Virus record (IMG/VR): IMGVR_UViG_3300032401_000690
Coordinates: 80,148-144,147 of that record
Length of the DNA: 64,000 nucleotides
DNA from: a virus
Strand: one strand, 5' to 3'
A model generated the notes under the pieces. It was not told the DNA's origin. It saw only the letters and a list, made by a program, of their open reading frames with translations, and did not search any database. Positions within the stretch are counted from its first letter, which is position 1, and each line of letters starts with the position of its first letter. Made by a program: the position numbers and the translations under genes. Below are positions 63,376 through 64,000 of the stretch, in pieces.

Positions 63376-63573
63376 ATGACACATAAACAATTTTATATTT
63401 GGTTGGATGGTTATTTAACTGGTAAGTTGGAAGACAAACATATTGCGATTGGACCTATTGTTGAAAAAATGGGTGAAGTTATATCTGACGAACAAAAATG
63501 GATTAATGATTTTACATCGTATCGGAAAATGGAAAAATTAAATCCAATTAAAATTGAGAACTCACCTGAATAA
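63376..63573 (+). CDS. Hypothetical protein
   Basis: 65 aa with an MTHKQFYIWLDGYL N terminus typical of small phage proteins. Confidence 0.65.
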   Translation: MTHKQFYIWLDGYLTGKLEDKHIAIGPIVEKMGEVISDEQKWINDFTSYRKMEKLNPIKIENSPE

Positions 63574-63596
63574 AGTGGGTTTTTTTTGTATCTTTG
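63560..63596 (+). promoter_or_regulatory. Terminator hairpin fused to a Bacteroidota-type -7 element
   Basis: ACTCAC-CTGAATAAA-GTGGGT plus a T run, then TATCTTTG (63589-96) ending 5 nt before ATG 63602. No clear -33 TTTG. Confidence 0.55.
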
Positions 63597-63601
63597 TGAT
63601 T

Positions 63602-63898
63602 ATGAATAAACAAGGAATTGTATTAAAGTGGTTAAACAAAGAGTTTGGTAATTTAACTCCGGTGGTTAAAAATGATAAAACATTTTATGTTGATAAGGAC
63701 AGATTGCCGTTATTTTACTATTACCAGGATTCAAAAAATAGGTATGTTTATATAAATTACGAAAGAATTTGGGTATTTTTTGAATCCATTTTTGGTCTGA
63801 ATTACTTGCAAACACAGGAGATTCTGAAGGTATGGTTGGGGGAGACCTATAATTTGAGGGGAGTCACACCTAAGTACTTTAAATCTGAATCACTTTAA
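63602..63898 (+). CDS. 98-aa array-associated hypothetical protein whose C terminus is encoded by repeat 1 + spacer 1
   Basis: MNKQGIVLKWLNKEFG...KVWLGETYNLRGVTPKYFKSESL*. ATG at 63602 follows the promoter element (track start 63554). Confidence 0.7.
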   Translation: MNKQGIVLKWLNKEFGNLTPVVKNDKTFYVDKDRLPLFYYYQDSKNRYVYINYERIWVFFESIFGLNYLQTQEILKVWLGETYNLRGVTPKYFKSESL

Positions 63899-64000
63899 TA
63901 GTTGGAAGAGACCTATAATTTGAGGGGAGTCACACCTAACAATTCAAAGTTCCAATGTGGAATTTCCTGTTGGAAGAGACCTATAATTTGAGGGGAGTCA
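63835..64000 (+). CRISPR. CRISPR-like repeat-spacer array with no cas gene in the window, truncated at window end
   Basis: 36-nt repeat GTTGGAAGAGACCTATAATTTGAGGGGAGTCACACC at 63835-63870 (2 mismatches), 63901-63936 and 63969->64000. Unique spacers of 30 nt (63871-63900) and 32 nt (63937-63968). The repeat structure is certain; CRISPR function is inferred. Confidence 0.65.

Follow-up and report, generated by a model that had tools for sequence, protein, structure and literature searches.

A small phage gene that ends in the first repeat of a CRISPR-type array

Known arrays and the phage locus

Type VI-B arrays offer the closest comparison for the locus described here. The F. columnare CRISPR-2 array, which belongs to this type, combines a 36-nt repeat with 30-nt spacers (PMC5395568, Table 4). 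The VI-B arrays of Flavobacterium have no cas1 or cas2 at the locus and are transcribed from the leader into the array (PMC8092290). These arrays gain spacers in trans through the type II-C Cas1-Cas2, despite different leaders and repeats (PMC8092290). By analogy, such filling in trans provides a precedent for a host machinery that could extend a look-alike array carried by a phage.

Arrays are also known from viral genomes. Virus-borne mini-CRISPR arrays and the cas-less arrays of huge phages hold one to few spacers and are presumed to use the Cas proteins of the host (PMC11656645, PMC7162821). The repeats of viral mini-arrays are identical to those of the host and their spacers mostly target related viruses (PMC11656645). 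None of the published mini-arrays is described as overlapping the coding end of a gene. Racr and Cracr are non-coding viral repeat units, sometimes multiplexed and often located near small anti-defence proteins, which occupy host Cas proteins (PMC10651486; 10.1101/2024.10.29.618823). The published search for Racr masked ORFs, and none was reported for type VI (PMC10651486).

We analysed a window of 64 kb, corresponding to the last part of a single virus record of 144,147 bp (IMG/VR; 31.7% G+C; CheckV completeness 49%). The analysis confirmed that a small phage gene of this window ends in the first repeat of a CRISPR-type array, and that the adjoining spacer is read as the tail of the protein. 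The repeat of the window and that of F. columnare CRISPR-2 are identical at 22 of 36 ungapped positions (hand count; PMC5395568). Both start with GTTGG, have a T-rich centre followed by a run of G and end with CA(A/C)C. The geometry of type VI-B, a 36-nt repeat of the form GTTG...CAAC with 30-nt spacers, is found in the phage, the 3′ end being CACACC in the clade of the window and ACAAC in the distant L101 clade. Unlike in type VI-B, however, no cas13b lies near the phage arrays, no host repeat matches, the leader is coding, repeat 1 is translated and the array is carried by an apparently virulent phage. Among 185,579 prokaryotic species genomes, none carried the repeat pattern, and neither cas13b nor a matching host VI-B repeat could be linked to the phage arrays (0/185,579).

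Like the viral mini-arrays, the phage arrays are Cas-less, hold few spacers and are located on a viral genome. However, neither host-identical repeats nor spacers targeting related viruses were found for them. Unlike in Racr and Cracr, the phage repeat belongs to an ORF, and polar growth is apparent in its arrays. A further comparison is offered by ectopic 'neo-CRISPR' integration in the E. coli type I-E system, where a repeat-like sequence can seed an array through Cas1-Cas2 with duplication of the repeat. This is a rare laboratory event, whereas the site in the phage is conserved in a gene family of hundreds of clusters. In the literature searched, no paper was found on a CRISPR-type array in which a gene finishes within the first repeat.

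The gene-array unit and its conservation

The features of the unit are collected in Table 1. The three repeats start at positions 63835, 63901 and 63969, with spacings of 66 and 68 nt, which gives spacers of 30 and 32 nt if the repeat is 36 nt long. As an estimate of chance expectation, the repeat pattern was matched 0 times in 100 shuffles. An earlier note on this DNA had placed repeat 1 in frame inside a 98-aa ORF, with spacer 1 giving the tail and the stop, and had described repeat 2, 66 nt downstream in the same frame, as silent behind TAA-TAG. Both statements were reproduced by translating positions 63602-64000. The conserved part of the protein ends in ...ETYNLRGVTP and is followed by eight spacer-coded residues and by TAA-TAG. 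Beyond these stops, the motif of repeat 2 appears in the same frame, then spacer 2, and finally repeat 3, which is read out of frame to a stop.

Table 1. Coordinates of the gene, its array and neighbouring elements (window positions unless stated otherwise)
Feature	Position	Strand	Description	Remark
Terminator-like hairpin	63561-63587	+	5-bp stem and 9-nt loop holding the stop of the upstream ORF (63561-63579), then T8	Read from sequence
TATCTTTG	63589-63596	+	Matches TAnnTTTG; 5 nt before ATG	Read from sequence; candidate promoter element
98-aa gene	63602-63898	+	Uncharacterised phage domain family; final 12 codons of the conserved part are repeat 1, final 8 codons are spacer 1	
Repeat 1	63835-63870	+	36 nt, within the coding sequence; 2 substitutions relative to repeats 2 and 3	
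Spacer 1	63871-63900	+	30 nt, translated as protein tail; 8 sense codons, then TAA TAG	No match elsewhere
Repeat 2	63901-63936	+	36 nt, untranslated in the window array	
Spacer 2	63937-63968	+	32 nt	26-nt core without exact match in IMG/VR
Repeat 3	63969-64000	+	First 32 nt	Cut by the window end, which is the contig end; the array may continue
497-aa fusion gene	Record positions 74636-76129 (L001:4637-6130)	-	4-5.5 kb before the window start	

Upstream of the gene, a terminator and an element of host type had been proposed in the same note. The hairpin with its T8 run and the TATCTTTG element are indeed present. The consensus terminator scan, whose loop limit is 8 nt, did not call the hairpin. 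TAnnTTTG is the -7 promoter motif known from Bacteroidota; genome-wide, it was found upstream of 5 of 129 ORFs as compared to 5.8 expected, showing no enrichment. From the sequence, it is plausible that the upstream hairpin insulates the gene-array unit. Autoregulation and a single near-leaderless transcript of gene and array, also put forward in the earlier note, are conjecture. No tRNA gene was found in the 64-kb window.

Three further modules are located in the same genome about 5.3 kb before the window, on the other strand, giving four modules in total. Each of the three encodes the same domain of ~95 aa that ends in the repeat and is followed by an array. These arrays contain 2 full repeats (in the 497-aa fusion), 5 repeats and 1 repeat. 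The 497-aa protein combines an N-terminal region carrying an HExxH motif, a complete Fe/Mn superoxide dismutase (PF00081 and PF02777) and the array-linked domain, the gene being followed by its own array. Metagenomes contain the superoxide dismutase fusion again (P0191), and the domain is also found fused to a lysozyme (P0135).

A profile built on the four domain copies of the genome retrieved 772 metagenomic proteins. Nearly all of them show the repeat peptide followed by ~10 unrelated residues and then by the next repeat, read in one of the three frames. In every module of 26 IMG/VR and 60 metagenome loci, a single plan is observed, gene(R1)-[spacer-R]n-spacer-truncated repeat. In the clade of the window, the truncated repeat corresponds to the first 21 nt, and the start codon of the next paralogue often follows it directly. 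Searched exhaustively with a profile, the family comprises 668 clusters at 50% identity, and in many of these the tail shows a second copy of the clade's own C-terminal motif. A second in-frame copy of the motif was located exactly 22 residues downstream in 12 of 139 cluster representatives. Four distant clades, studied at the DNA level, have their own 36-nt repeats with a period of 65-66 nt, matching their own C-terminal motif.

The loci L101/L102, L103, L104 and L025/L026 represent such distant clades, each with a 36-nt repeat of its own in which its particular version of the C-terminal motif is encoded. At L103, the reading frame stays open through five units, giving a 183-aa protein. At L027:253-620, a divergent homologue retains only the remains of an array, with decay of both the repeat and the terminal repeat and with a shorter spacer, indicating that the array can erode while the gene persists.

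Overall, the data show that the gene family and the array form one conserved unit. A gene joined to its own array had been suggested in the earlier note, together with the check that homologues should consistently end in the repeat-encoded peptide followed by arrays, and this is what is observed. Conservation across the family rules out a chance overlap or read-through. In the 185,579 prokaryote genomes, the protein family is essentially absent, with two weak partial matches only. GenBank phages gave no match to the family, and none to the 9 kb of DNA before the contig end. The family is abundant in lake and marine metagenomes. It belongs to uncultured large phages that are apparently virulent.

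Array growth, translation footprint and the protein domain

The behaviour of the arrays was studied on a set of 54 arrays containing 101 spacers of 29-33 nt, with adjoining repeats of 36 nt. Near-identical direct repeats, of a length within the 23-55 nt expected of a generic CRISPR array, alternate in this set with unique spacers of near-constant size (101 spacers in 54 arrays). The polarity of CRISPR arrays, with homogeneous repeats at the leader end and a degenerate terminal repeat, is also observed. Indeed, gene-proximal repeats are identical and variants are distal, arrays reach up to 8 identical repeats with unrelated spacers, and the last repeat is truncated in 51 of the 54 arrays. A non-coding AT-rich leader is not found; repeat 1 is preceded by the coding sequence of the 98-aa gene. 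One spacer and a truncated repeat are all that is present in 34 of the 54 modules. Spacer lengths modulo 3 are distributed as 40/32/29. A tandem-repeat protein mistaken for a CRISPR array was rejected because the frame shifts between units and stops occur in two of the three frames; only some arrays are wholly in frame (L103).

We compared the codons of repeat 1 with those of the rest of the gene in 65 genes. Arginine is encoded by AGG in 100% of cases in repeat 1 versus 13% elsewhere, threonine by ACC in 49% versus 10%, leucine by TTG in 68% versus 19% and glycine by GGA in 68% versus 14%. GC3 amounts to 0.50 in repeat 1 versus 0.28 in the rest of the gene. This shows that constraint acts on repeat 1 at the level of the nucleic acid and at that of the protein. 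The repeat RNA folds weakly, and in Rfam the repeat matches no CRISPR-DR family.

Several features bear on how the arrays arose. Because neighbouring paralogues carry different repeat variants, the homogeneous arrays do not result from a collapse of diverged modules. Because the spacers are unique, they do not result from tandem duplication either. With identical repeats and unique spacers side by side, insertion is a better candidate than swapping for the origin of new tails. In near-identical phages of different samples (L028-L031, about 9,900-10,700 in L028), the third module exists in two lengths, one form having a repeat-spacer unit more than the other at its distal end. In the shorter form, the truncated repeat is a hybrid, which is what recombination of repeat 2 with the terminal repeat would produce. 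No gene-proximal spacer difference was seen between near-identical genomes, the sole strain difference being distal.

Three neighbouring spacers of module b (L001:4140-4390, - strand; the same array is found in L050) have 7-9 of their first 9 bases in common and then diverge wholly. Such shared spacer starts were observed in 4 of 119 pairs within arrays, mostly in one array, and in 0.5% of pairs between arrays. They were given no weight.

Stop codons were then counted for each spacer in the frame set by the preceding repeat (frame 0) and in the other two frames. Of all 101 spacers, 5 have a stop within codons 1-5 in frame 0 as compared to 40 in frame +1 and 29 in frame +2 (p=1.5e-12). In codons 6-10 of the same spacers, no depletion was detected (21 in frame 0, 25 in frame +1, 20 in frame +2). 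Of the 49 spacers that do not adjoin the gene, 3 have a stop within codons 1-5 in frame 0, 17 in frame +1 and 18 in frame +2 (p=1e-6). Otherwise, the spacers behave like random sequence, with no codon-usage signal and no three-base periodicity, and their use as long-term coding cassettes was rejected on these grounds. Their amino-acid composition in frame 0 resembles that of the other frames, with a slight hydrophobic excess at codon 2.

Read most simply, this footprint means that each spacer has at one time adjoined repeat 1 as the tail of the protein, and was kept only if the last strand was not truncated. Insertion would then occur at the gene-proximal repeat with duplication of this repeat, which is the polarity of CRISPR adaptation. 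These results bear on the swappable C-terminal tail of the earlier note, which holds in part. Translation does turn the spacer adjoining the repeat into a replaceable tail, and the mark of such reading is present on every spacer. However, recombination between repeats, its suggested source, was seen once, as a distal deletion. Tails as selected cassettes were not borne out, since the tails resemble random sequence filtered only against early stops.

AlphaFold models of two paralogues with different tails had pLDDT values of 92.4 for the 98-aa protein and 86.5 for the other. The modelled fold consists of a helix, four strands, two helices and a last strand. In both models, the last two residues coded by the repeat and the first three coded by the spacer form this last strand, after which the confidence collapses. 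The predicted placement of the last strand would account for the stop-depletion pattern in the early spacer codons. No family for the domain was found in Pfam, PHROGs, PADLOC or NCBIfam. Foldseek against the PDB gave no convincing fold match (best E 0.058), and neither did a wide structural comparison (VIA; best Z 4.5). In BFVD, the domain matched only uncharacterised proteins of uncultured phages.

Partners of the array and competing explanations

The search for Cas1 gave no match in this record or in 13 related ones, all of them at most 51% complete. In the colinear relative G001, no ORF of more than 740 aa is present in the 80 kb after the module, and no cas13b-sized ORF lies near the arrays. 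The three largest window ORFs tested (1274, 599 and 506 aa) had no match in PADLOC. As all the records are fragments, the absence of cas genes from the phage is no more than likely.

Matches to the spacers were searched in several sets of sequences. The spacers of the genome have no match within its own 144 kb, and their derivation from the phage itself was rejected accordingly. The 101 spacers compared with 740 kb of related phage DNA gave only chance matches of 14-19 nt. Two arrays had no match in GenBank phages or in plasmids. In IMG/VR, the exact cores of four spacers matched only themselves or nothing.

Concerning the host, the best matches of the SNF2 helicase are to phages of unrelated hosts, at less than 33% identity. 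Shine-Dalgarno-like motifs precede only 1 of 129 ORFs. Only a few bases separate the stop and start codons in the truncated repeat between tandem modules. The near-absence of Shine-Dalgarno motifs and this closeness would fit a Bacteroidota-type host and possibly reflect translational coupling. In the relative G001 (149.7 kb; L032-L036), the sequence opens with a module and stops ~1 kb short of the site of the other arrays. Together with the end of the window record, this indicates that contigs of the phage group tend to break at arrays. The true phage genome is probably larger than 200 kb.

The explanation that we favour, with a probability of about one half, is that of a Cas-less CRISPR-type array with VI-B-like geometry, in which the 3′ end of a conserved phage gene provides both leader and first repeat, and which is grown by host Cas1-Cas2 and serves a host Cas13b-type effector. 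As in CRISPR adaptation, each new spacer would enter immediately behind the repeat embedded in the gene, and this repeat would be duplicated. Insertion would most likely take place in trans through host Cas1-Cas2, as for the cas1-less VI-B arrays of Flavobacterium. Every insertion would replace the tail of the protein, and survivors would be those leaving about five sense codons; according to the models, such a length may be required for the domain to complete its last beta-strand, to which the first three or four tail residues contribute. Spacers of earlier insertions would be pushed distally and would retain the footprint. The mRNA of the gene would carry crRNA-like units that load a host Cas13b-type effector. 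Such units might act as guides, directed against competitors or against transcripts of the host, or they might be inert decoys. That the newest spacer is translated may then be a tolerated side effect of the gene serving as leader and promoter. The selected role of the array is the least certain part of this explanation, RNA units for a host Cas13b-type effector being favoured.

Several observations stand against the favoured explanation. The repeat diverges together with the gene across clades, so that either many host repeat types are tracked or the repeat is independent of the host. With the polarity of type VI-B, where the spacer is 5′ of the repeat, the 34 of 54 modules made of one spacer and a truncated repeat would hold no complete foreign guide. 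In the searched data, no Cas1, no host repeat and no protospacer were found. The weak folding of the repeat RNA and its lack of a match among the Rfam CRISPR-DR families also weigh against it, as does the strain comparison, where no proximal spacer gain was seen and the one difference is distal and explained by recombination.

Other explanations compete with the favoured one, above all tail diversification and a pure decoy. Diversification of the tail may itself be the selected function, with spacer capture writing new C-terminal strands or tails on a constant domain by insertion, not swapping, and with no RNA guides. We regard this as possible though doubtful. The overlap between repeat 1 and the coding end, kept across an old and diverse family, speaks for it, as do the translation footprint on all spacers and the position of the tail start within the modelled fold. 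The domain is moreover found at the C-terminus of enzymes (superoxide dismutase, lysozyme), where it is adaptor-like. Yet apart from early stops the tails have a random composition, the slight hydrophobic excess being limited to codon 2, and the models are disordered beyond about residue 4. In addition, distal untranslated units would be useless, yet arrays of 7-8 units with intact repeats are observed. On this explanation a virulent phage family would use CRISPR-type insertion of random 30-nt pieces to rewrite the last strand and tail of an adaptor-like domain, whether alone or fused to enzymes such as superoxide dismutase and lysozyme, perhaps with an integrase other than host Cas1-Cas2; we would give this version of events only a minor share of the probability. 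An array unrelated to CRISPR would need either recombination of the truncated repeat with repeat 1 of the next module, collapsing tandem paralogues, or phased iteron- or centromere-like DNA sites for the protein. The modules are tandem and the region is plastic, the one strain difference is a repeat-repeat recombination, collapse would likewise leave a translation footprint on every spacer, and the period is constant at 65-66 bp. This origin is nonetheless very unlikely: the repeats of neighbouring paralogues differ, yet as many as 7-8 identical repeats occur in one array between unrelated spacers; the length variation of the spacers, 1-4 nt, is that of CRISPR arrays; and structure comparisons of the domain gave no DNA-binding resemblance.

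The two other explanations concern the RNA. Repeat 1 might be a decoy of the RNA anti-CRISPR type, placed in an abundant early mRNA and titrating host Cas, the arrays being a by-product of host Cas1-Cas2 and the spacers functionless. Inhibition of host Cas by solitary repeats of viruses, and by multiplexed crRNA-like units, is indeed known (PMC10651486; bioRxiv 10.1101/2024.10.29.618823), and the masking of ORFs in the published search (PMC10651486) implies that such a class would have been missed. Most modules are minimal, tandem modules multiply the repeat, and no spacer with a target was found in the searched data. What makes the decoy unlikely is that no host repeat matches, that the repeat diverges together with the protein motif and that no reason is given why a mimic must sit in a coding end across 668 clusters. 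As to a compact protein-plus-array system, in which the small protein would bind or process the repeat RNA and the spacers would act as guides, we consider it highly improbable. It had been raised in the earlier note and gained no support, since the protein could not be placed in any known fold or family and folding of the repeat RNA is weak. Strict linkage of gene and array and the co-evolution of the repeat with the C-terminal motif family-wide could be taken in its favour, but this co-variation follows trivially from the physical overlap. Moreover, the ~90-aa domain shows no nuclease or RNA-binding similarity and also occurs as a C-terminal appendage of superoxide dismutase and lysozyme.

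CRISPR arrays are taken as non-coding and the tools used for viral repeats mask ORFs, so that a class of phage-borne arrays has probably been overlooked. The stop-codon footprint is a sequence-only way to read where spacers enter an array. If tail diversification were the selected function, proteins would be diversified here in a way that differs both from diversity-generating retroelements and from cassette recombination. If, as in the favoured explanation, the adaptation machinery of the host writes into a phage gene, this would constitute a new interface between phage and CRISPR, serving counter-defence, inter-phage warfare or as a decoy, and a natural case of spacer capture changing a protein.
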